From NCBI GenBank assembly GCA_048881705.1, contig JBHLSH010000091.1, forward strand, positions 1 to 13,670: a DNA stretch of 13,670 nucleotides, given 5' to 3'. The notes below the pieces were generated by a model. That model did not search any database, was not told the DNA's origin, and saw only the letters and a list, made by a program, of their open reading frames with translations. Positions 2,539 to 13,534 of this stretch are shown here, in pieces. The translations under genes and the position numbers were made by a program. This DNA comes from Candidatus Heimdallarchaeota archaeon (GTDB lineage Archaea > Asgardarchaeota > Heimdallarchaeia > Hodarchaeales > Hodarchaeaceae). How positions within the stretch are numbered: position 1 is the stretch's first letter; the number at the start of each line of letters is the position of its first letter.

Positions 2539-3879
2539 ATGACCGATCAAGAAGAAATTTTAGTACGCCAGAGCAGATGGAGTGGTCGACGAGTGGTCTT
2601 ACTCTACTGGTTTTCCATAGTCTTCGTTGGAACAGCGGCCGCTGCAGGTATCGGGGCAACTGTTTTGAATCAAGGATATTCCATTGATCAAACAAATCCC
2701 CATACGGGCATCACGGAACCCTGGCATCCAAGTGACTGTTCTCCATGTCACGACGAAAAAATAGCATCTTGGAACCAGACGCTCCACTGGAATGCGTCAA
2801 CTTATCTGAATTCCTCACACGTGTTAGTGTGGGGTACAATACCTACTCCCATCGTCGCGTTCAACGGATCTTGTTCCCATTGTATGGCAACACGCTGGAA
2901 TGTAACGGATCTCACTTATTGGGATCTTGGAGTTGCTTGTGCTGCCTGTCATGAGGCCCCTGGAGTAGCCCCAACCTCGTCAACGAGCTGTGATATGACG
3001 TGTCATACGCCAAAAGGTGTTTACCAATCAGACAATTCCGCAGCTGCGCACTCGAGCTCACTTGATGATTTGCTTGCAAATTCCCATGCCCAGGATTTCT
3101 GTTTACATTGTATGGCTGGACAAGGCCTATTTGCGGATCCCGCAGACCTGACACTAGATAATACAGAGCTCTCCAACATCTTCTGCGCAACGTGTCACAA
3201 TCCACATGACTCTACCAATGAAGACCAGCTTAGGAGAGCAAGTGTCACAGAACTTTGTGGAGAATGCCATACTGATTCTGGTGAGTTTCTTACAGATAAG
3301 AGTGACTGGAGAACGACCAGTCCTCATAACGAGCTGGATTGTACCGATTGTCACGGTTCTCAGTATGTTGCAGCTCACAACACCTCTCGAGGCTGGGTTG
3401 ATGCCGCTTATACCCTAAATCACAGTTGGGCCCTGGACGTCCCCGATGCATGTGAACGATGCCACATTGGTGAGAACGCTACTCAAGCTGCTACCTTGGC
3501 AACCATCCAGGCTGACATTGGAGAATTAATGGATAAGGTTGAAGACGAGATAGCAAACGCTACAAGCAAAGCTGATGAGGCAAAGAATGTCACAGGTATC
3601 GATCAGGCAAAAGTGAACAACTCCTATGATCTGATTGAGGAAGCAGAAGATCTGTTTGATGCTGTTGAAGGCGATAATAGCATGGGTTTCCACAATCCTG
3701 ACCTCGCTGAAGAAAAACTGTTGTTGGCATTGGCAAAGTTAGAAGAAGCTTACGAGACTGCTGCGGATGCAATTGATGCAGCTACTCCTGCTGGTACACC
3801 CGGATTCGAACTGCTTGGAATACTGTTAGCTTTAAGCATGATCGGCTTATCAGTATTGATTCGACGCAAGAAACGATAA
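2539..3879 (+). CDS. Multiheme cytochrome c (c554/c552-like heme modules plus C-terminal helical bundle) with PGF-CTERM-like anchor
   Basis: CxxCH at aa 67, 134, 216, 240, 268 and 305; CDMTCH at 151; CSHCM at 112 and CLHCM at 188. GFHNP plus amphipathic helices as in NrfA/c552-family C-termini. N-terminal hydrophobic helix; C-terminal TPGF-TM-RRKKR. Confidence 0.92.
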   Translation: MTDQEEILVRQSRWSGRRVVLLYWFSIVFVGTAAAAGIGATVLNQGYSIDQTNPHTGITEPWHPSDCSPCHDEKIASWNQTLHWNASTYLNSSHVLVWGTIPTPIVAFNGSCSHCMATRWNVTDLTYWDLGVACAACHEAPGVAPTSSTSCDMTCHTPKGVYQSDNSAAAHSSSLDDLLANSHAQDFCLHCMAGQGLFADPADLTLDNTELSNIFCATCHNPHDSTNEDQLRRASVTELCGECHTDSGEFLTDKSDWRTTSPHNELDCTDCHGSQYVAAHNTSRGWVDAAYTLNHSWALDVPDACERCHIGENATQAATLATIQADIGELMDKVEDEIANATSKADEAKNVTGIDQAKVNNSYDLIEEAEDLFDAVEGDNSMGFHNPDLAEEKLLLALAKLEEAYETAADAIDAATPAGTPGFELLGILLALSMIGLSVLIRRKKR

Positions 3880-3945: not shown

Positions 3946-3987
3946 AAAAATAGGAGCAGCAGCTGGTTGCTGTTCCTATCGTTTTTT
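3946..3987 (+). terminator. Hairpin plus T-tract terminator after the cytochrome gene
   Basis: ATAGGAGCAGCAG-CTGG-TTGCTGTTCCTAT (3950-3979; 13-bp stem with 2 G-U), followed by CGTTTTTT and preceded by AAAA. Confidence 0.65.
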
Positions 3988-4107
3988 CTATCAGCCGGTC
4001 GGGAATTGGGAAGAAGATCGTTGTATTTTTTGTCTTTTTACCGTCATTTGATAATTAAATCGAAAATTTATTCAGAAATAACTGGTTTAATAGCTTATTT
4101 AAGGAGA

Positions 4108-6330
4108 ATGAACATTATTATGCTGATTACCTTGAGCTTCCGTAATGGAAAAACCAAATGGTTGAATTATGCGCTCGTCATAATTTTGGCGAACTTTCTA
4201 GTCTTTCAGAGCTTCGCAGGTTTTTTGAACCCGAGTTTTATCTGTTCCAACCACGACACAAGGGGAGGGCAAATAATACGGGATTCCGATGAAGATCCTC
4301 AAAATAATTTCGGTGCTAGATCGAAGTTAACCTCAGAAACTGCGGATGATCCTGAAGCATATTTTCCGAATTTCCTTTATTATTCAGTGGAGATTGCAAA
4401 CGCTCTTATTGATTATTTATACGATAATACTTCGGGAGGTTTTTACGTCTCTACGGGCGTAAATTGGGATCCTAGTTCCGTAAATCGTTTGAAACGCACC
4501 TATGATAATGCACAAGCGATTTTGGCATTGTTGAAGCTTTCAGATGCTGTAATTAACGAAGCGGAACGGAATTTTGCTATTGAGATTGCTATAAAGACTG
4601 GAAATTGCTTAATCAGAGACCTATACGACAATAATGTTGGTGGATTCTATATTGCTTCAAATAATCAATATAAAAAGCCAGGAGTGAACGCAAAAGCAAT
4701 CCAAGCGCTCTTAGCCCTTTATGAAACTACTGGAAATCAGAGCTATCATGAAATCGCATTGAGTGCACAAGAATTTCTAGATTCTCATGCATGGAAGAGC
4801 AGTAACGGATATTATGTTTATTTGCTAGCTCATTATGGAGCAACGGCGAGTGAAAATCCAAATCCGAGCGATCCCTTCGATCCTGGATCAATCAGGGTTG
4901 ATCATAACGCACTAATGGGAGATGTGTTACTGAATCTATACAAGGTTGAAAACGATGAAAAGTATCTAAACAAGGCTATACAGATTTTCGATTTCTTGAA
5001 TGAAACGTGCAGAGACCCCAAAACTGGATTATTCTATGATGGATTGGACAGCGAAAATAATGTGGTAAGCCCGTCCTCAGCGGATATTTTCACGAATACA
5101 CTTGTCCTTGGTTTCCTGGCCAATCTTTATAATTCTACAGACGATATCAGATACTATTATGACTTCATGTACCTAATAAACATCGTTATGCTCGATTTTT
5201 GGGATTCTCGCTACGGTGGGTTTTATGCGACCTACTCATCTGATGAATCTGTAAAGCGAGACGAAAAGAAATATACCGAGAGGCTATTTTACGGCATTAG
5301 TGCCCTAGATAAAGCATATAAACTTACAGATAAGGATATATTTTACAATATTATCCTAGATGTCGTTGAATTTCTTAATAATAAGTTGTATGATCAAAAT
5401 CACTTAGGTTATTATCAAATAACAAATGCTGATGGATCTATCGGTTCCGATTATTGGAATAACAAATTCAGTGTCACACAGGCATTATCCATATACGAAT
5501 TGTCAAATCTCTGGATGTACAGCAAACCAGGGGTACTTAATGCCATCTGGTCACCTTCCAATCCCCGTCCCCAAGAATCTGTAACAGTTACTGTCGCTGC
5601 ATCTGATTCTGACGGAATAGCAGACGTATTATTTAATTATACTGTAGATGAGGCCCCTTACGAATTAATAAGCATGGATCCGAGTGCCAAAGTTGGGGAC
5701 CTCTATAATGTAGAACTACCCCCTCATACCGAAGGTACAAAGATCAGGTTTTTTATTATCGTTAATGACACTTTTGGGAATCAGGTTGTACGTGGATTTT
5801 ACGAAATCCTTTGGAGACATGATGTCTGGGCACCTCATATTGCACAGGTGGGGTTTGATCCCTCAGTTGACATCATTCCTGATACAGAATTTTCGATTGT
5901 AGTAACCGCAATTGATGTCCCCGTCCAAGGGGAAGTTCGATCAGTCCGCATGTATTATCATCTTTCTGGGGAGCCCGAAGAATCCGTATCCTTAAACAAG
6001 ATCGGTCCTCATCTCTGGAAAGTCAGTTTCCCCACTGGGTTACATCTTGCAGGTACATATGCCTATTACTTTGAGGCAATAGATGACCGCGGCAATTATG
6101 GTTACGGTCAAAGCGGGGCATTTCAAGTACTTGCACCGTTACAACCAGTTTCAATCTCTTTCATAGTCCTGTTACTAACAGTAGTTTTGGTTGGTGTTCC
6201 GGGAGGGCTTTATGGATATGTCGAATTAAAGAAAAAGAGCGCACGCAAGACATTAAAGTCGATGAGGGCTGAAAGGTACCATCAACGTAGAGGAAGCAGA
6301 GCTAGAAGAGGTGTAAAAAGCACTAAATAG
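4108..6330 (+). CDS. Membrane-anchored six-hairpin (alpha/alpha)6 glycosidase-like protein (AGE/GH76/YyaL-like) with two C-terminal beta-sandwich domains
   Basis: The TTG 3967 start overlaps the terminator; ATG 4108 or 4120 follows AGGAGA. N-terminal hydrophobic helix. Six hairpin turns: LYDNTSGGFY, LYDNNVGGFY, AWKSSNGYYV, CRDPKTGLFY, FWDSRYGGFY, LYDQNHLGYY. RTYDNAQA resembles YyaL KMLYDNA. C-terminal TM plus K/R-rich tail. Confidence 0.7.
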   Translation: MNIIMLITLSFRNGKTKWLNYALVIILANFLVFQSFAGFLNPSFICSNHDTRGGQIIRDSDEDPQNNFGARSKLTSETADDPEAYFPNFLYYSVEIANALIDYLYDNTSGGFYVSTGVNWDPSSVNRLKRTYDNAQAILALLKLSDAVINEAERNFAIEIAIKTGNCLIRDLYDNNVGGFYIASNNQYKKPGVNAKAIQALLALYETTGNQSYHEIALSAQEFLDSHAWKSSNGYYVYLLAHYGATASENPNPSDPFDPGSIRVDHNALMGDVLLNLYKVENDEKYLNKAIQIFDFLNETCRDPKTGLFYDGLDSENNVVSPSSADIFTNTLVLGFLANLYNSTDDIRYYYDFMYLINIVMLDFWDSRYGGFYATYSSDESVKRDEKKYTERLFYGISALDKAYKLTDKDIFYNIILDVVEFLNNKLYDQNHLGYYQITNADGSIGSDYWNNKFSVTQALSIYELSNLWMYSKPGVLNAIWSPSNPRPQESVTVTVAASDSDGIADVLFNYTVDEAPYELISMDPSAKVGDLYNVELPPHTEGTKIRFFIIVNDTFGNQVVRGFYEILWRHDVWAPHIAQVGFDPSVDIIPDTEFSIVVTAIDVPVQGEVRSVRMYYHLSGEPEESVSLNKIGPHLWKVSFPTGLHLAGTYAYYFEAIDDRGNYGYGQSGAFQVLAPLQPVSISFIVLLLTVVLVGVPGGLYGYVELKKKSARKTLKSMRAERYHQRRGSRARRGVKSTK

Positions 6331-6347: not shown

Positions 6348-8573
6348 ATGTTTTACATTAATTTAGGTATATTTGGAATGGATTTAGGAGTAGTTTTACT
6401 CTTTATAGGCCTTATAGGCTTGATTCTTGATTTATTCATTGTACTTTTGGGCGAAAATATCGAAAGATGGGAAGATTATTCTGAGGTCAGCCTCATTATT
6501 AGCGGATTATCTCTGATAACCTCATTTTTTTACTTTGGTTTCTCGGTCATTACTGCTGATTATGGTTTTACATATGTTAGCAGTTTTGTAAATAATAGTA
6601 TGGATATTTTTATGAGGATATCCGCTATTTGGTCAGGCCAAGCAGGCTCTTATTTCTTCTGGGCGTTTCTCGCAGTAGTTATCTATTTGATAACTCGACT
6701 ACTATTCCGGCAATACTCCCATGAAACTTTTTTCTGGCGTGTATTTGCGCTGATGGCATTTCAAGTAGCAATCTTGACCTTGCTGACAATTTTAAGTGAA
6801 CCATTTAGGATCGAACCAATCGCTAAGACAGATGGTATTGGCCTCAATCCACTCTTGATGAATTTCTGGAATTTTATCCACCCGCCCATAATATTTGTGG
6901 GATACGCTCTATGCTTAATTCCAATGGTTATTGGAATTGTCAGAATTTCCATTCTTGAAAAAGGGAAAGTTCCCAATTTTGATGGGAAAGATACCGTGGA
7001 TAAATTCTTTGATTTTGTAGTTTCCTTAGCGTGGCTTGTTCTGGGCTCAGGTATTATCATTGGTGGCTATTGGGCTTATATCACCCTAGGTTGGGGGGGA
7101 TTTTGGGCATGGGATCCCGTAGAGACAGCTTCATTAATACCCTGGTTATTCTTGACCCTTTACTTCCATGGTATTTCCTTTCATCGTAAAAACGAATATC
7201 TTGGGAATTATATCATTAGTATGACGTACCTTGGCGCCTTATTTGCAACGTATCTAACACGAAGCGGAATTCTTTCCAGTGTCCACACCTTTGCTCCTGA
7301 TGGAATTCTGGAAAGTCTTTTGACGATCATCGTACCTTCTAACAGTTTTATTATGGCCATTATTTTAAGAGTAATCCCTGATGAAAGAATGTTGGTGTTA
7401 TTCGTTGTTATTCTCGTAACCTTTATAGCTGTGCATTTTATGGGTATAAAGAACGAAGGAGTTAAACAACTCCCTATTACATTGGGAAAATCTGATTTTC
7501 AGATAAAGAAGGCTCGACGAACCGCCTTAAAAATCTCATATCTCGCGCTTTTTTTCGGCACAATCGTCATGGTACTAGGTTTAATAACGCCCGTCTTGGT
7601 TGACATTCTTGGGTATATTGTTACTTTGAGTCCTAACGGATTTGAATTTACTTTATCCATTGGTCCACCTTTCTTTAATACTATGCTCGCCCTTTTCGGA
7701 GGTATAATGCTTTTAGCGCAATTTTTCTGCACCTTTTATCCCCGAATAAGCGTGAAGCGAAAGTTTGGATTATTGGTTGGAGGAGTAACTGCTGGGGTTC
7801 TGTTCGCTGTGAGCGGAATTCTATATCGAAGCGGATCTCTTTCATCGATTCTAGGAGACGGAAATCTGATTTCGGCATTCTTCAGTAACTTTTGGACTAC
7901 TAGTGATAAAGCAAATCTGGTTATACCTCTGATTGTCTTGGGAATGGTGGGCCTATTCATTGAATTCATAGTTGTCGCTCTAAAAGAAGAAAAACAGTTA
8001 ATGCGGAAATCTTCGCAGACAATGTTGCATTTATCATTCCTAGTGATTATATTAGGGGCAATTTTAAGTGCTAATATGGTCATTGCTCACGAAATCACGG
8101 TTCAAGCGGGAAATGACTATGAAATAGCCGGGACATCTCTCAAAATTTCGATACTGGATTTGGATCAAAGATTTCCTGAAAGCGGGCAAAATTCTGTTGA
8201 ATACGATACCACTTTCATGATTATAGCAGGTACAAGAGTAATCGGTGTTGCGATTAGTCAATTTGCTTTGGATCGTGTAGACAGGCAAAATCCAAAGGTA
8301 ACTATCATCAGTGACTTCCTTGCAGATATATACGTTGTTACGTCTGGAGTATTTCAAAATAGGATTACCAACAGATTTGATATGTCTATTCTGCAAATAA
8401 GAATAATCCCATACATCGGTATTCTCTGGATCGGTTGCCTTCTCCTACATTTTGCAGTAATTCCCTTAACAATCAAGAGATTTGTTGATATGAAACAGGT
8501 ATTCTCTTCATCTACCGCAGAAAAGGGTAGAATTGAGCCTGAAGAAAGGATTCCGACTCAAATGAAAACATAA
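6348..8573 (+). CDS. ccmF: Cytochrome c biogenesis heme lyase CcmF (System I), full-length
   Basis: WWD motif WGGFWAWDPVETASLIPWL; WSGQAGS; GLNPLL; conserved His in IHPP, YFHG and SVHTF; polytopic membrane protein. Confidence 0.95.
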   Translation: MFYINLGIFGMDLGVVLLFIGLIGLILDLFIVLLGENIERWEDYSEVSLIISGLSLITSFFYFGFSVITADYGFTYVSSFVNNSMDIFMRISAIWSGQAGSYFFWAFLAVVIYLITRLLFRQYSHETFFWRVFALMAFQVAILTLLTILSEPFRIEPIAKTDGIGLNPLLMNFWNFIHPPIIFVGYALCLIPMVIGIVRISILEKGKVPNFDGKDTVDKFFDFVVSLAWLVLGSGIIIGGYWAYITLGWGGFWAWDPVETASLIPWLFLTLYFHGISFHRKNEYLGNYIISMTYLGALFATYLTRSGILSSVHTFAPDGILESLLTIIVPSNSFIMAIILRVIPDERMLVLFVVILVTFIAVHFMGIKNEGVKQLPITLGKSDFQIKKARRTALKISYLALFFGTIVMVLGLITPVLVDILGYIVTLSPNGFEFTLSIGPPFFNTMLALFGGIMLLAQFFCTFYPRISVKRKFGLLVGGVTAGVLFAVSGILYRSGSLSSILGDGNLISAFFSNFWTTSDKANLVIPLIVLGMVGLFIEFIVVALKEEKQLMRKSSQTMLHLSFLVIILGAILSANMVIAHEITVQAGNDYEIAGTSLKISILDLDQRFPESGQNSVEYDTTFMIIAGTRVIGVAISQFALDRVDRQNPKVTIISDFLADIYVVTSGVFQNRITNRFDMSILQIRIIPYIGILWIGCLLLHFAVIPLTIKRFVDMKQVFSSSTAEKGRIEPEERIPTQMKT

Positions 8574-8590: not shown

Positions 8591-8983
8591 GTGATGAGTA
8601 CAAAAAACCTTATCATGGTTGTATCGACAGTCGTTATTTGTTTGAGTGCTTTTTTTCTTCTTATAGCAAATACATCTACTCCAGTATTTACCGTAAAAGA
8701 ACTGATAGATCATTCTCAACCCGATTCTTTAATGAATAAGAACATCCAAGTGATAGGAGTTGTAGAAGATATGAATAGCACGGGTTTCTATATATCTGAT
8801 CCTGAAGACGTTGATAACACCTCATTACTCATTTATGTCAATTCAACTAATGTAATAAGACCCTCAGGATTTGAAACTGGAAAAACAGTGCTTGTTGAAG
8901 GAGAACTCCTCTCTATAACTAGTTTATGGAAATTCAAGGCAAGATTGATCAGTACCAAATGCCCCTCAAAATACACATCGTAA
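8591..8983 (+). CDS. ccmE: Heme chaperone CcmE, CxxxY type (System I*)
   Basis: N-terminal TM, OB-fold-like VIGVV...VLVEG and terminal ISTKCPSKY (CxxxY); 17 bp after ccmF; GAGGTGA SD at 8580-8586. Confidence 0.93.
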   Translation: MMSTKNLIMVVSTVVICLSAFFLLIANTSTPVFTVKELIDHSQPDSLMNKNIQVIGVVEDMNSTGFYISDPEDVDNTSLLIYVNSTNVIRPSGFETGKTVLVEGELLSITSLWKFKARLISTKCPSKYTS

Positions 8984-9267: not shown

Positions 9268-9975
9268 TTGAGCAGGAAAACCACAATTTTGTTGATATTG
9301 TCCGGTGCAGCTGCTGCAATCGGATTGGTAAGTGCAATTGGAAGTACATGCACAACTTTTGATCCCCAATGGTGGAAGGTAGCCTCATTCTCCATTATTG
9401 CGGACTTTCAATTGATCTTTATCCTCACTTACATAGTTACTTGGTTGGTGGCCTTGGCATGGGGTGTTCTATTTTGGGCTTTAAGAGTGAAAAAACCATG
9501 GTTCTATCGTTCAGCACTAATCACCAGCATAGCAGGATTCCTAAGTGGATTTATTCCAGTGGCCATCCTATTTTATGAATGGTGGGCCAGTTATGGAGTC
9601 ACTGGTATGGCATTCACGCCTTCATGGTTCCGTACAATTATCAATGCAGTTATTCTAGTCGTACTCCTCCTCCCTGTAATGAGAACTGAAATACAAAACA
9701 TGGTTGAAGAGAAAGCTGCTCTCCCAGGGATGAGTACGGGAACACAGATTTCTGATTTCGCCTTTGTTTTGTTCGGATTCGGGATTGTATTGATGTTACA
9801 ACCATACATTATGCCTGCCACCCATATAATTAATGGTGTGAACGTAGGTTATGATTATGAAGAGCTGCAATTCTTCGGTGGTCTACTCTCTCTCCTCCTT
9901 GGAGTAGCGATTCGGCTAATTGGATATTTACTTAACATGTTTTATTCGCCGATCCCCACCTCTAGCCAAACATAA
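9268..9975 (+). CDS. Hypothetical polytopic membrane protein (about 6 TM)
   Basis: TTG start after a purine-rich AGGAAAGGA; six hydrophobic segments; no family motif I can name with confidence. Confidence 0.8.
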   Translation: MSRKTTILLILSGAAAAIGLVSAIGSTCTTFDPQWWKVASFSIIADFQLIFILTYIVTWLVALAWGVLFWALRVKKPWFYRSALITSIAGFLSGFIPVAILFYEWWASYGVTGMAFTPSWFRTIINAVILVVLLLPVMRTEIQNMVEEKAALPGMSTGTQISDFAFVLFGFGIVLMLQPYIMPATHIINGVNVGYDYEELQFFGGLLSLLLGVAIRLIGYLLNMFYSPIPTSSQT

Positions 9976-10144: not shown

Positions 10145-10600
10145 CTAAGGAGCATCCAATAGTGATGATGCCTTATCTATATCAATAACTGGAACACTAT
10201 TATGGATGCAATGAAAAGATCGGCATTTCTTTTGTCGTACTGATCCCCATTTGAAACCCCATCCTTTCAAAATGGCGAAAATAACTTGAAAATCAATTCC
10301 TTTTTCAGTCAAAGAGTACCTCACTCTAATGGGCATCGTTCCACCCAAAACCTCTCGTCGAAGGATTCCATTCTCTTCTAATCTACTTAAACACTCTGAT
10401 AGGACTCGCGCGGAGATTTTTCTCCCATAAGTTCCTTCAATTCTTTTCAAGAGGTCAGAAAAGTACAGATTATTCTCCTCAAGTAGTTCACAGATTATCC
10501 AGGGTATCCATTTACGCCCTAGGATCTTAATCGCAATTAAGGCAGAACAATCGTCTACTGAGTGTTGAATTTCAGATTTAACAACTTCTGTTTCTATCAA
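10145..10600 (-). CDS. HxlR/DUF24-family winged-helix transcriptional regulator, Cys-rich
   Basis: C..AIKILGRKW...IICEL...YFSDL...ISARVLSECLSRLEENGILRRE...PIRVRYSLTEKG...LKGWG is the HxlR signature. N-terminal Cys18; C-terminal extension CRSFHCIH. Confidence 0.92.
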   Translation of the reverse strand: MIETEVVKSEIQHSVDDCSALIAIKILGRKWIPWIICELLEENNLYFSDLLKRIEGTYGRKISARVLSECLSRLEENGILRREVLGGTMPIRVRYSLTEKGIDFQVIFAILKGWGFKWGSVRQKKCRSFHCIHNSVPVIDIDKASSLLDAP

Positions 10601-10786
10601 TTCTGTATCAATCCTTAGAGACTGTTTGATTTTCGTTCAAATGTTGGCTTTGGGAGTTGACGTTGATGATCCTTCATCACTTTCACAGATAGGTTTGGAT
10701 GCAAATCATCGCAAATCTGCAAAAGAACGATTCAAATCGTCATGAATTTAAAAATAATTCCTATTCTTAAGTCTTTCCTAGTAAAA

Positions 10787-10809
10787 TTACCAGGTAACTA
10801 TTTCGTAAC
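10787..10809. promoter_or_regulatory. Candidate operator in the divergent hxlR / HCO-like intergenic region
   Basis: Palindrome TTACC-A-GGTAA (10787-10797) overlaps the direct repeat GTAAC-N6-GTAAC (10794-10809). AGGTAACT resembles the AGGTTACT core of the 54-bp element. Confidence 0.4.
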
Positions 10810-11003
10810 AGGCTCCCACAAAGTAAACTTGCTTCTCAAAACCTTACCAAATACTATTAACACGGTTTTTAATTGCAAAACACGAAATCTGATCATAATT
10901 ACTCCATGCTGATTAGAGTTCTCGACTTTTAAATCGTAATCAATCTAACGGAAATTTTTAATAATAAATATGTTTTAACCATTAAAAATGACAAAATCGA
11001 GGT

Positions 11004-12611
11004 ATGTTGATGGTGAATATCCACATTGAGAAAGTCAAAGAAGACTCTTTTCCTGTTAAAAACCAATGGTTACGATCCAAATTAAATTATGGATTTGGAA
11101 CGTATAAAGGATTACTTACAATCACGATTGTTTATGAATTTATCCTTATTTTAACCTTGGGATCATTCTCTGAACCCATGGTCAACCTACTTGGCGCTCC
11201 ACTGCTACCAATCACATTAGATGATGGTACACGAGTTGCACGGATTGTCATGCTTTATCATTCATTTGCACTCCCCTTTGTGGCTGCGATAACCTACTTC
11301 ATTCTGGAATTTTGCGACGTTCGGAAGAATTGGGAATCCCGGACTAAGATTTTGATTTTCCCTGGAAGCATGATCGCTTCCATTTCTGGAATATTATTTG
11401 CCTATTTCTTCCCTCACAACTGGATCATTCATGGGTTCTTTATTTTTGGCCTTTCTTTGGTATTCCTTAGTGGACTTTTTCTATTTATTGGAGTGTTTCC
11501 ATGGAAAAAATTTCCAGATCCAGAAAAGAAGGTGGATGGCCCTTATCTCTTCGGTATCAATATTGCACAAGTCGCATTGGCATTATTTGTTTTTTGTGTC
11601 TTGGTTTCTACGATAATCGGAGCTGCTGCAGGAGCATATTTTGGAAATGGATTTGAAGCATTCCTTGCTGAACACGTTCTTATAGAAAGACATCTTGTAC
11701 ATACTCTCTTTGAAGCCGCAATAATCTCTCATCTCCATATTATGCTCGCACTAATTGATGTCGGGATACTCCTGGTAGTATTTCGTTATACCTTTCCCGA
11801 GCAAAACGGGCGGTGGTATCTCGCATCCATGGTTTTAACCATACCAGGTATGCTAGTAATGTCAATAGGCGCCTGGCTTGTTACTATCGCTGACGAAATT
11901 AATTTGCCATTCGATTCGCATTATTTGATTTATGCTGGCGCTGCTATTCTTCTTTTGGCTGGAATTATTCTCGCCCTTGCTGGTTGGAAGAAGACCAGCA
12001 AAGAAATTTTGGGAAATTCATACGATTCTTCTTCCCTATTCACTCGGATCAGGGCCGCTTTCAAAGACCCCGTGAAATTGGGTTTATATTTCCAATTTAT
12101 CTGGGTAAACATCGTGATGACTCTTCCTGGAATCTTTCTAGCACTCAGTCTACGAGACGATTCAATATTAACCAGAATCACTGGAATTCCATCGTTTCGG
12201 GAAAGTGGCCCCGAATTTGTTGAACTGATGGTCGCTCGAGGACACTGGCATGTTTTGGCGACACTTTCCGCGATCATAATGCTTCTTCTCGCTTTGGACT
12301 ACCTGAATGTTCAAGGCAGGGTTCGTCAAGTAATTGGATGGATACTGAACATAGGCAGTATCCTTGGTTTCCTATTCGCCGTTATCTTCATTTACTCCCC
12401 TCACTTTGATCCCAGAATCACACAAACCATCTATTACGGAGTGGCAAATGTAGAGGCCATTATTGACACATATATCGCAAACACTCCCCTGATGCAGTTA
12501 TCCTTCCTTATCATTGATCTTGGAATAGTTCTTTTTGTAGTTGGGCTTATTGTGTTTTGTCTCCATCAGTTAATAGAAATCCTCAAGGGTAAGATGGATG
12601 TAACAGGATGA
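11004..12611 (+). CDS. 12-TM His-rich membrane protein, putative heme-copper-oxidase-homology (HCOH) fold
   Basis: About 12 TM in three 4-TM units. His in TM2 (LYH86), TM6 (H243LH245) and TM10 (H414WH416), plus H143 (TM4) and H306 (TM8). GAGGT SD favours ATG 11010 as start. The CDS call is firm; the fold call is inference. Confidence 0.6.
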   Translation: MLMVNIHIEKVKEDSFPVKNQWLRSKLNYGFGTYKGLLTITIVYEFILILTLGSFSEPMVNLLGAPLLPITLDDGTRVARIVMLYHSFALPFVAAITYFILEFCDVRKNWESRTKILIFPGSMIASISGILFAYFFPHNWIIHGFFIFGLSLVFLSGLFLFIGVFPWKKFPDPEKKVDGPYLFGINIAQVALALFVFCVLVSTIIGAAAGAYFGNGFEAFLAEHVLIERHLVHTLFEAAIISHLHIMLALIDVGILLVVFRYTFPEQNGRWYLASMVLTIPGMLVMSIGAWLVTIADEINLPFDSHYLIYAGAAILLLAGIILALAGWKKTSKEILGNSYDSSSLFTRIRAAFKDPVKLGLYFQFIWVNIVMTLPGIFLALSLRDDSILTRITGIPSFRESGPEFVELMVARGHWHVLATLSAIIMLLLALDYLNVQGRVRQVIGWILNIGSILGFLFAVIFIYSPHFDPRITQTIYYGVANVEAIIDTYIANTPLMQLSFLIIDLGIVLFVVGLIVFCLHQLIEILKGKMDVTG

Positions 12612-13534
12612 CCCGACTAGAGATCCAGGATTCAATCCAGGGATACGGTGCGCCAATGTATCCCTCCTTTTCTTTTTCTCTTTATGGAGAATTAATTAAG
12701 GCTAAACAAACTTTTCTCTTGATGTATACTGTAGCATTTGCTTTTCTAATAAGTGCATGGCCTATTGGGATTATATTGGCTGATTTTTTCTGGCTCCTAG
12801 TGGGATTATTTCTCGCAATTTCGGGATCAACGATGCTTAACATGTATATAGATCGCGATATCGACGCTACCATGGGGCGGACAAGAGGTCGGCCTTTACC
12901 GAGTAATAGAATAAGGCCTTCAACCGTACTTTTCCACGGTCTTGCATTCTCCACTGCGGGCATTTTAGTTACAGGTGTTTTTATTAATCCCCTTACGATG
13001 ACAATGGTCTTTTTAGGTTGCTTTTTTGACGTAGTGATTTATTCTTTGTGGTTGAAACGACGAACCCGGTTTTCGATCATCTTTGGCGGCATCGCAGGGG
13101 GATTGCCAGCAATAGCAGGACGAACCGCGGTGACTGGAGCATTAGATATAATTGGACTCTTGTTAGGGTTGTTTGTTCTTAGCTGGATTCCGCTGCATAT
13201 CCTTTCAATTGCCCTAATACCAAGGAATTTGGAAGGTTACAAAAACTGTAATATCCCCATCTGGCCGGTCGTAAAAGGCGAGATACAGACATACAGAGTG
13301 ATTACTATTTCTGCGCTTTTGAGTTCATTTATCATTATAGTTTTAGGAATCTTGTTGAAAATCAATCCCTTAGCCTGGCTAATACTTCTTGTTTTCTGTT
13401 TTTTTATATTTTATCAGGCCATAACCAATCTCAAACGCCCTTCCAACACCAGAACATATAGAATATTCAAATTGGCCTCTTTATTCATGGCATTTGCTTT
13501 TTTCTGGCTTTTTATGGGCGTAGCATTTTCTTAA
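12608..13534 (+). CDS. ctaB: Protoheme IX prenyltransferase (heme O synthase, CtaB/CyoE; UbiA superfamily)
   Basis: NMYIDRDIDATMGRTRGRPLP, YSLWLKRRT, IIFGGIAGGLPAIAG, WIPLH and Y...IP motifs; ATGA overlap with the upstream gene. Confidence 0.93.
   Translation: MTRLEIQDSIQGYGAPMYPSFSFSLYGELIKAKQTFLLMYTVAFAFLISAWPIGIILADFFWLLVGLFLAISGSTMLNMYIDRDIDATMGRTRGRPLPSNRIRPSTVLFHGLAFSTAGILVTGVFINPLTMTMVFLGCFFDVVIYSLWLKRRTRFSIIFGGIAGGLPAIAGRTAVTGALDIIGLLLGLFVLSWIPLHILSIALIPRNLEGYKNCNIPIWPVVKGEIQTYRVITISALLSSFIIIVLGILLKINPLAWLILLVFCFFIFYQAITNLKRPSNTRTYRIFKLASLFMAFAFFWLFMGVAFS

Follow-up and report, generated by a model that had tools for sequence, protein, structure and literature searches.

The contig JBHLSH010000091.1 of a Candidatus Heimdallarchaeota archaeon (13,670 nucleotides; hereafter the window) encodes a protein with 12 transmembrane (TM) helices whose modelled fold is that of subunit I of the haem-copper oxidases (HCOs) and nitric oxide reductases (NORs), and which we refer to as HCOL. 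HCOL is a new family-level variant inside the oxidase structural superfamily, uncurated and widespread: no fewer than 581 species-level genomes, the majority of them from anaerobic lineages, contain it, and its gene is coupled to that of a CtaB-like haem O synthase of the UbiA family. A search of the literature did not return a description of the family, which is not proof that none exists. The function of HCOL we infer: given the predicted structure, the conserved residues and the genomic context, we hold the chances to be about even that it is a two-haem redox enzyme, which would combine the oxidase scaffold with haem O and a re-wired site.

The AlphaFold (AF2) model of HCOL has a predicted local distance difference test score (pLDDT) of 88.6 and a predicted template-modelling score (pTM) of 0.90. 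In a structural search of this model against representatives (VIA-align), the ten best matches were all subunits I of HCOs or NORs (Z 15-21). The list was headed by CcoN of the cbb3 oxidase (3mk7_A; Z 20.9, 408 aligned residues, root mean square deviation 4.3) and NorB of cNOR (4xyd_A; Z 20.0), while the aa3, bo3, ba3 and caa3 oxidases scored Z 17-18 and the qNORs Z 15-16; the first match outside the superfamily was an unrelated designed protein (Z 11.8). The first 50 matches obtained with Foldseek were likewise all HCO/NOR. An initial annotation, made from the letters of the window alone, had proposed an HCO-like fold and named AlphaFold and Foldseek as the means to check it, and only subunit I of HCOs and NORs was matched in this way. 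By sequence, neither HCOL itself nor its family profile had a match in Pfam, NCBIfam or the PDB, the sole hit of these searches being a weak one, at chance level, to an Mrp antiporter subunit; the search of the PDB with the HCOL profile did not retrieve the HCOs. Zero matches to COX1 (PF00115) or NnrS (PF05940) were found among 50 members of the family at E-values up to 10, which leaves the comparison with NnrS, drawn earlier, without sequence support, and none to CtaA/COX15 (PF02628) in HCOL of the window and these 50 members. The profile-profile alignment (hhalign) of HCOL with Asgard COX1 runs in register over 366 columns, at a formal Prob of 2% and an E of 0.021, and pairs H86 with H75 of COX1 (TM2) and H414/H416 with H392/H394 (TM10). 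E407 is placed beside the column of the COX1 pair H384/D385, which corresponds to the Mg-site ligands of bovine oxidase. Considering the fold matches and the aligned haem ligands on the one hand, and the missing TM7 histidines and active-site tyrosine on the other, HCOL is, as modelled, a true structural relative of subunit I in which the haem ligands have been kept and the copper motif is missing. It shares descent from a triplicated four-helix scaffold with subunit I of the HCOs and NORs.

Residues are numbered throughout from the start codon at 11004, as in the initial annotation. The true start is probably the ATG at 11010, because a 96%-identical homologue has 533 amino acids and a GAGGT lies 6 nt upstream of that ATG. 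The open reading frame (ORF), its 12 TM helices and all the residues that had been singled out were recovered at the codons given earlier and in the helices assumed then, which in the AF2 model span residues 74-103 (TM2), 140-164 (TM4), 235-263 (TM6), 305-339 (TM8), 404-433 (TM10) and 495-528 (TM12). In an alignment of 50 HCOLs with identities down to 36%, seven histidines are invariant: H86, H143, H243, H245, H306, H414 and H416 (codons at 11259, 11430, 11730, 11736, 11919, 12243 and 12249, respectively). The same holds for R80, Y85, Y134, E223, W291, E407 and W415. The aspartates D252 (11757) and D505 (12516) do lie in TM6 and TM12 as had been noted, and both are variable.

In a wider set of 222 relatives, reaching around 20% identity, H86, H243, H414 and H416 are each kept in 220-221 sequences; for H86 and for H243 the count is 221, the remaining sequence being gapped. 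H245 and H306 are both present in 216 sequences and both absent in 4, and they are never found singly. The sequences without them are P0152 and the clade P0207/P0217/P0221, which makes at least two events, and the latter clade also lacks H143 and E407. No conserved histidine was found in TM7 (residues 270-295) of the 50 aligned sequences, where W291 is invariant, and the tyrosines that are invariant, Y85 (TM2) and Y134 (TM3), belong neither to TM6 nor to the outer end of TM7. The earlier remark that the HH pair of TM7 is missing and that TM6 has a second HxH is thus borne out by the conservation. H306 marks the outer beginning of TM8 and is separated by a short loop from the site of the oxidase HH pair. 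It was also tested whether the loss of H245/H306 is tied to the loss of the UbiA neighbour. A UbiA gene is missing from the vicinity of all three variants amenable to inspection, but three distant branches that keep both histidines have none either, so that the association is unspecific. Several of the distant branches show the motif GHEH in TM10.

The three-fold repeat of the scaffold was analyzed by profile-profile alignment of the units TM1-4, TM5-8 and TM9-12 of HCOL, with reversed sequences as a control. Units 1 and 3 matched with an E of 4e-6, units 2 and 3 with 5e-6 and units 1 and 2 with 8e-3, against 0.05-0.8 for the reversed controls. In the alignments H86/H245/H416 fall into register, as do H143/H306/D505 and the (P)G motifs found in each third helix. 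Judged by these profiles, the pseudo-symmetry of HCOL exceeds chance and is still legible in the sequence, in line with the three pseudo-symmetric four-helix units proposed initially. In canonical Asgard COX1 units 1 and 3 alone still match (E 5e-5), whereas unit 2, which holds the copper ligands, does not. TM6 of HCOL (IISHLHIML...RYTFPEQNGRWY) aligns with TM10 of COX1 (VVGHFHLIA...YYLYPEATGKMY) at an E of 4.6e-4. With its repeat still readable, HCOL offers a means of testing ideas on the evolution of the catalytic site.

The TGA stop of HCOL (12609-12611) overlaps the ATG (12608-12610) of the synthase gene, an arrangement that had been pointed out before. The synthase matches PF01040 at 1.6e-44 over 247 of the 250 positions and scores 204.8 bits with TIGR01473, for which the equivalog cut-off is 210.3 and the members of the HCOL-linked clade score 191-225 bits. 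Its three best NCBIfam models are all haem O synthases, the next UbiA type following at 1.5e-18. The protein contains the Asp-rich motif N-x3-D-x3-D followed by R-T-x2-R-P (it reads NMYIDRDIDATMGRTRGRPLP), the signature of the family. The linkage, which had been put forward as a point to check by co-occurrence, is general and not unique to the source genome: at 62 of 80 HCOL loci from species-representative genomes, HCOL is followed on its own strand by a CtaB-like gene, which is either the next gene or is separated from HCOL by one gene for a protein resembling formylglycine-generating enzyme (FGE). These loci belong to Asgard archaea, Chloroflexota, Aminicenantes, Bacillota and others, and the pairing was also seen on metagenomic contigs of Bacillota, of another bacterium and of Heimdallarchaeota. 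A maximum-likelihood tree, in which E. coli CyoE was not represented, united the 49 HCOL-linked synthases of archaea and bacteria without exception in one clade of 53 rows (support by the Shimodaira-Hasegawa-like approximate likelihood ratio test, SH-aLRT, 99). The COX1-linked and canonical CtaB proteins fell outside it, including the second copy of the source genome (contig C53). The latter is 34% identical to the synthase of the window, and the bacterial partner synthases around 40%.

Two further candidates were rejected. Relatives of 777-858 amino acids had been taken for HCOL-UbiA fusions; they are instead fused to an FGE-sulfatase domain or to a PD40 propeller. The ORF upstream of an 'orphan' ctaB-like gene (locus L110) is unrelated to HCOL. 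L110 and the loci L112-L117 of the Asgard family f23 have a ctaB-like gene (E around 1e-67) and no COX1, and their synthases form a sister clade to the HCOL-linked ones; of the five f23 genomes, only G066 matched HCOL, and weakly so (E 6e-12).

Among 151 Asgard genomes, matches were found to HCOL in 23, to COX1 in 10, to a ctaB-like gene in 31 and to CtaA in 6. A ctaB-like gene is present in 22 of the 23 HCOL carriers, the exception having only a 64-residue match to the HCOL profile. COX1 was not found in 16 of the 23, among them a one-contig genome and genomes with an estimated completeness of 97-100%, and in these COX1-less carriers the sole ctaB-like gene usually adjoins HCOL. The same combination of partner synthase and no COX1 was encountered in a Spirochaetota genome. 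The source genome, in addition to HCOL, encodes a normal COX1, a canonical CtaB and a short archaeal CtaA (165 amino acids, contig C9).

This distribution bears on the possibility that HCOL modifies haem for canonical oxidases or inserts it into them, be it as a non-orthologous haem A synthase or insertion partner replacing CtaA, as proposed in the initial annotation, or as a chaperone that delivers haem O/A to COX1. The tight coupling with haem O synthase would fit such a role, as would the COX1-family gene found directly upstream of HCOL in three Chloroflexota loci and the four COX1-positive Asgard genomes with HCOL in which no CtaA showed up. However, most Asgard carriers have no COX1 to be served, CtaA was detected solely in COX1-positive genomes, similarity to COX15/CtaA is absent and the strong fold matches are all to catalytic subunits I. 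Because the source genome has a normal oxidase with its own CtaB and CtaA, a replacement of CtaA is unlikely, and a role in haem A synthesis or oxidase assembly in general is very unlikely and largely refuted by the phyletic pattern. As to haem supply, no gene for porphobilinogen synthase (ALAD, PF00490) was found in the source genome (90.9% complete), which nonetheless encodes c-type cytochrome maturation, COX1, CtaA and two CtaB-like proteins; either the haem is imported or the ALAD gene was not assembled.

Table 1. Features of the HCOL locus in the window.
Feature	Position	Strand	Basis
HCOL, HCO-fold 12-TM protein (P0001, 535 aa)	11004..12611	+	ORF call, AF2, fold search
TM2 motif R80..Y85-H86; H86 predicted axial ligand of low-spin haem	11241..11261	+	conservation, alignment with COX1 H75
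H143, outer end of TM4, pseudo-symmetry mate of H306	11430..11432	+	215/222 sequences
TM6 H243-L-H245, second HxH mirroring TM10	11730..11738	+	conservation, TM10 alignment
H306, outer end of TM8; candidate ligand of re-wired non-haem site	11919..11921	+	co-variation with H245
TM10 E407...G-H414-W-H416; HxH corresponding to two HCO haem ligands	12222..12251	+	COX1 alignment, conservation
ATGA stop/start overlap (translational coupling)	12608..12611	+	sequence
CtaB-like haem O synthase, HCOL-linked clade (P0002, 308 aa)	12608..13534	+	PF01040, TIGR01473, tree
AT-rich divergent intergenic region, probable shared promoter/operator	10601..11003	.	read from sequence
HxlR/RrpB-like redox regulator, divergent	10145..10600	-	PF01638 2.4e-14, NF047364 5e-15
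memA, 235-aa polytopic membrane protein	9268..9975	+	28/80 loci, both domains

To define the partners of HCOL, the ORFs of the 80 loci were clustered. The Asgard cluster comprises memA, a divergent HxlR gene, c2, HCOL and UbiA, often with a transporter of the major facilitator superfamily (MFS). The bacterial cluster comprises Crp/Fnr, the Cys-rich lipoprotein c8, c7, c2, HCOL, a lipoprotein with an FGE-sulfatase domain, UbiA, c2' and memA. Outside this core, 150 neighbours contained only three recurrent families, namely HxlR (beside HCOL in 13 Asgard loci), Crp/Fnr (10-11) and MFS (5). The initial annotation had stated that a subunit II gene is absent; this is correct as far as a CuA cupredoxin or a cytochrome c subunit is concerned, as none is present in the window or among the conserved neighbours of the 80 loci, but conserved accessory membrane genes do exist, and these had been overlooked there, as had the HxlR or Crp/Fnr regulator and the FGE-like lipoprotein of bacteria. 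In memA the residues G25, G90, P118, H186 and G212 are invariant and C28 nearly so, and the protein is homologous to bacterial c7 (hhalign Prob 95%). No family could be named for memA, since its AF2 model (pLDDT 88.7) matched only generic helical bundles in the fold search (Z at most 11.7); Pfam has no family for memA, c2 or c8. The FGE-like partner (PF03781) has a lipoprotein signal, and the consensus of 37 such partners has no cysteine after 'rGGS'. The catalytic Cys pair of FGE is located after the RGGS motif, and the partner is therefore not a formylglycine-generating enzyme. P0129, P0174 and P0217 are fusions in which the C-terminus of HCOL continues through an extra helix into the FGE-like domain or a PD40 propeller, and this places these partners outside the cell. 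Upstream of HCOL in the window, an A/T-rich, TATA-like run is found around 30-45 nt before the start; scans for Sigma-70 promoters and terminators, which are not designed for archaea, gave results at chance level.

Several further observations on the loci can be added. The closest public contig is labelled Thorarchaeota, and the relatives are of the Heimdall- and Hodarchaeales type. c2 is normally located directly upstream of HCOL in Asgard loci; in the source genome (G000) it is found on contig C23 (G000:C23:38548-39198; L150 1498-2145, minus strand), between a NUDIX gene and the gene for HMG-CoA reductase, and it is 57% identical to the copy of locus L021. c8 is a lipoprotein of around 140 amino acids with conserved cysteines and a terminal GC-x-CH motif that precedes bacterial clusters (L074 4578-5000 and seven other loci), and it may have a role in metal binding. 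The COX1-family genes upstream of HCOL in Chloroflexota (L060 3729-5357, L061 3562-5202 and L070 4198-5826) are divergent (around 210-220 bits), and two of these three loci have no adjacent UbiA gene. The distant HCOL branches (L152, L153, L154 and the contigs of P0221, P0207 and P0152; 20-26% identity, no UbiA neighbour) have genes for PD40/Tricorn propellers as neighbours, and two of them also have genes for large molybdopterin oxidoreductases along with FeS proteins. The window itself further contains genes for a 446-aa multihaem cytochrome c with NrfA/c552-like and paired-CXXCH domains and a Heimdall/Loki-CTERM sorting signal (2539-3879), a 787-aa GH76/epimerase-like protein (3967-6330), a 741-aa CcmF/NrfE-like haem lyase (6348-8573) and a small CcmE-like protein (8591-8983). 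This block of four genes also stands beside the HCOL cluster of a Heimdallarchaeota chromosome (L015). A partial PEP synthase/pyruvate phosphate dikinase-like gene with a PPDK_N domain (1-609) is unrelated to HCOL.

Taken as an enzyme, HCOL would bind two haems as in the oxidases, a low-spin haem held by H86 and H416 and a second haem held by H414. Opposite the latter, H245 of the TM6 HxH and H306 at the start of TM8 would together form one distal site, the re-wired counterpart of CuB/FeB. H243 points to the opposite face of the helix and may serve another pocket, much as the two histidines of TM10 serve two haems, and a further cofactor on that face of TM6 is possible. At least one of the haems would be haem O made by the coupled prenyltransferase of the CtaB clade, because most carrier genomes offer this synthase no other client. 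Furthermore, HCOL would work with the small conserved membrane proteins memA and c2, and in bacteria additionally with the exported FGE-like lipoprotein, the Cys-rich lipoprotein or the PD40 propeller, under the control of redox-type regulators (HxlR in the source genome, Crp/Fnr in bacteria). Given that no CuA or cytochrome c partner is present, the electrons would probably be drawn from the membrane. Such an enzyme would most likely serve anaerobes by reducing or scavenging a small oxidant, either NO or O2 in traces. The anaerobic life of the hosts, regulators of the redox type and the NrfAH, flavodiiron and hemerythrin genes that lie nearby now and then all hint at this, and no step in this reasoning is weaker than the choice of substrate. 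The missing tyrosine argues against canonical four-electron O2 reduction, following the reasoning of PMC11214002.

A number of observations weigh against this enzyme reading. The ligand assignments depend on a predicted model and a profile alignment whose formal probability is low, and the histidines of TM6, although at the depth expected of active-site histidines, were not aligned with the CuB histidine by hhalign. Histidines at positions i and i+2 face opposite sides of a helix, which makes it improbable that H243 and H245 share one metal. The joint loss of H245 and H306 amounts to only two or more independent events. Moreover, the distant HCOL branches have no UbiA gene nearby, an electron-donor subunit was not identified, and the NO/O2 context (Crp/Fnr, HxlR, NrfAH, flavodiiron protein, hemerythrin) is suggestive only. 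The prediction of a complex of HCOL with two haems and memA scored 0.00, which weighs neither for nor against binding.

The main rival to the enzyme reading is that HCOL is a purely electron-conducting membrane cytochrome with bis-His haems (H86 with H416, H414 with H245 and H243 with another residue) and no open catalytic site, which would feed the exported partners (FGE-like lipoprotein, PD40 propeller, Cys-rich lipoprotein) or the nearby multihaem cytochromes. Such a role would be in line with the resemblance of the TM6 HxH to that of TM10 in a scaffold that is more symmetric than in the oxidases, with the absence of an active-site tyrosine and of a three-His copper motif, and with the exported partners that are fused to the C-terminus of some members. 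The surface multihaem cytochrome and CcmF/CcmE genes that adjoin HCOL in the window and in the clusters of close relatives, and the molybdopterin/FeS oxidoreductases next to distant branches, point the same way. On the other hand, the partners have no recognisable redox cofactor motif, the redox-stress-type regulators suit a scavenging enzyme at least equally well, and to our knowledge haem O is otherwise found in O2-reducing oxidases (bo3-type and related) and not in simple electron carriers. We consider the conduit somewhat unlikely.

Quite improbable, in our estimate, is a derivative of the oxidase scaffold that is poor in cofactors and serves as a sensor, channel or transporter of haem, metal or gas, its histidines binding metal or substrate. 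The oxidase haem-ligand triad, kept in nearly all of the 222 sequences, and the dedicated clade of haem O synthases are hard to explain without haem, even though direct cofactor evidence for HCOL is absent, GGDEF and regulator genes stand beside some loci and MFS transporters are found next to Asgard copies. A more far-reaching reading, which we deem unlikely, would see in HCOL a surviving and nearly three-fold-symmetric side branch of the ancestral HCO/NOR scaffold, with three pockets for cofactors (two of them for haems as in the oxidases, the third, at the second HxH, for another haem or a His/Glu metal site), with haem O in strict anaerobes and with a chemistry that is neither canonical O2 nor NO reduction. 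If so, haem O and the 'COX10' oxygen-marker genes of Asgard archaea would predate aerobic respiration or be independent of it.

Returning to the enzyme reading, HCOL is probably a redox enzyme of anaerobes that works with haem and has so far been overlooked, and if it is an NO or O2 scavenger it would constitute a new enzyme class for the oxygen/nitrogen tolerance of anaerobes, including the closest relatives of the eukaryotes. The distribution described above has a more immediate consequence. For Asgard archaea, the haem O synthase has been classed with the 'O2-dependent enzymes' (10.1101/2024.07.04.601786), and in published work haem O synthesis figures as one of the traits of all Heimdallarchaeia that depend on O2. 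Considering that so many HCOL carriers have no COX1 and that their sole ctaB-like gene is usually the HCOL neighbour, a COX10/ctaB gene is not in itself evidence of an oxidase.

Among the known systems, CcoN of the cbb3 oxidase is, like HCOL, a minimal 12-TM subunit I that has the TM2 histidine and the TM10 HxH in equivalent places. It differs in having the TM7 HH pair, a cross-linked tyrosine and the cytochrome c subunits CcoO and CcoP, none of which HCOL has; moreover, haem b is the cofactor of CcoN, while HCOL is accompanied by a haem O synthase and has an HxH in TM6. NorB (cNOR 4xyd_A; qNOR 3ayg and 6fwf) shares with HCOL the absence of an active-site tyrosine, conserved glutamates near the outer side and the occurrence in anaerobes. 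The two qNORs match the HCOL fold with Z 16.1 and 15.1, and qNOR also does without a separate redox subunit. The NORs, however, keep the TM6 histidine and the TM7 HH pair that bind FeB, contain haem b and match PF00115, whereas in HCOL the HH pair is missing and the glutamate pattern of the NORs is not found in register. The bo3 oxidase of E. coli (CyoB/CyoE; 1fft, 6wti; fold match Z 17.7) offers the precedent of a co-encoded haem O synthase and accepts electrons from quinol without a metal-bearing subunit II, but in contrast to HCOL it has a full CuB site, the tyrosine cross-link, subunits II-IV and proton channels. Finally, the families eNOR, sNOR, gNOR, nNOR and NOD (Murali et al. 2024, PMC11214002) resemble HCOL in that they were derived from metagenomes, have altered active sites and lack the tyrosine, and they have been proposed to carry out chemistry other than O2 reduction. 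All HCO families described so far keep the three active-site histidines, one of which is replaced by Asp in gNOR, and eNOR, sNOR, nNOR and gNOR encode a homolog of the CuA-type secondary subunit (PMC11214002). HCOL, by comparison, lacks two of the three histidine positions, has no CuA-type subunit and goes undetected by the COX1 model.

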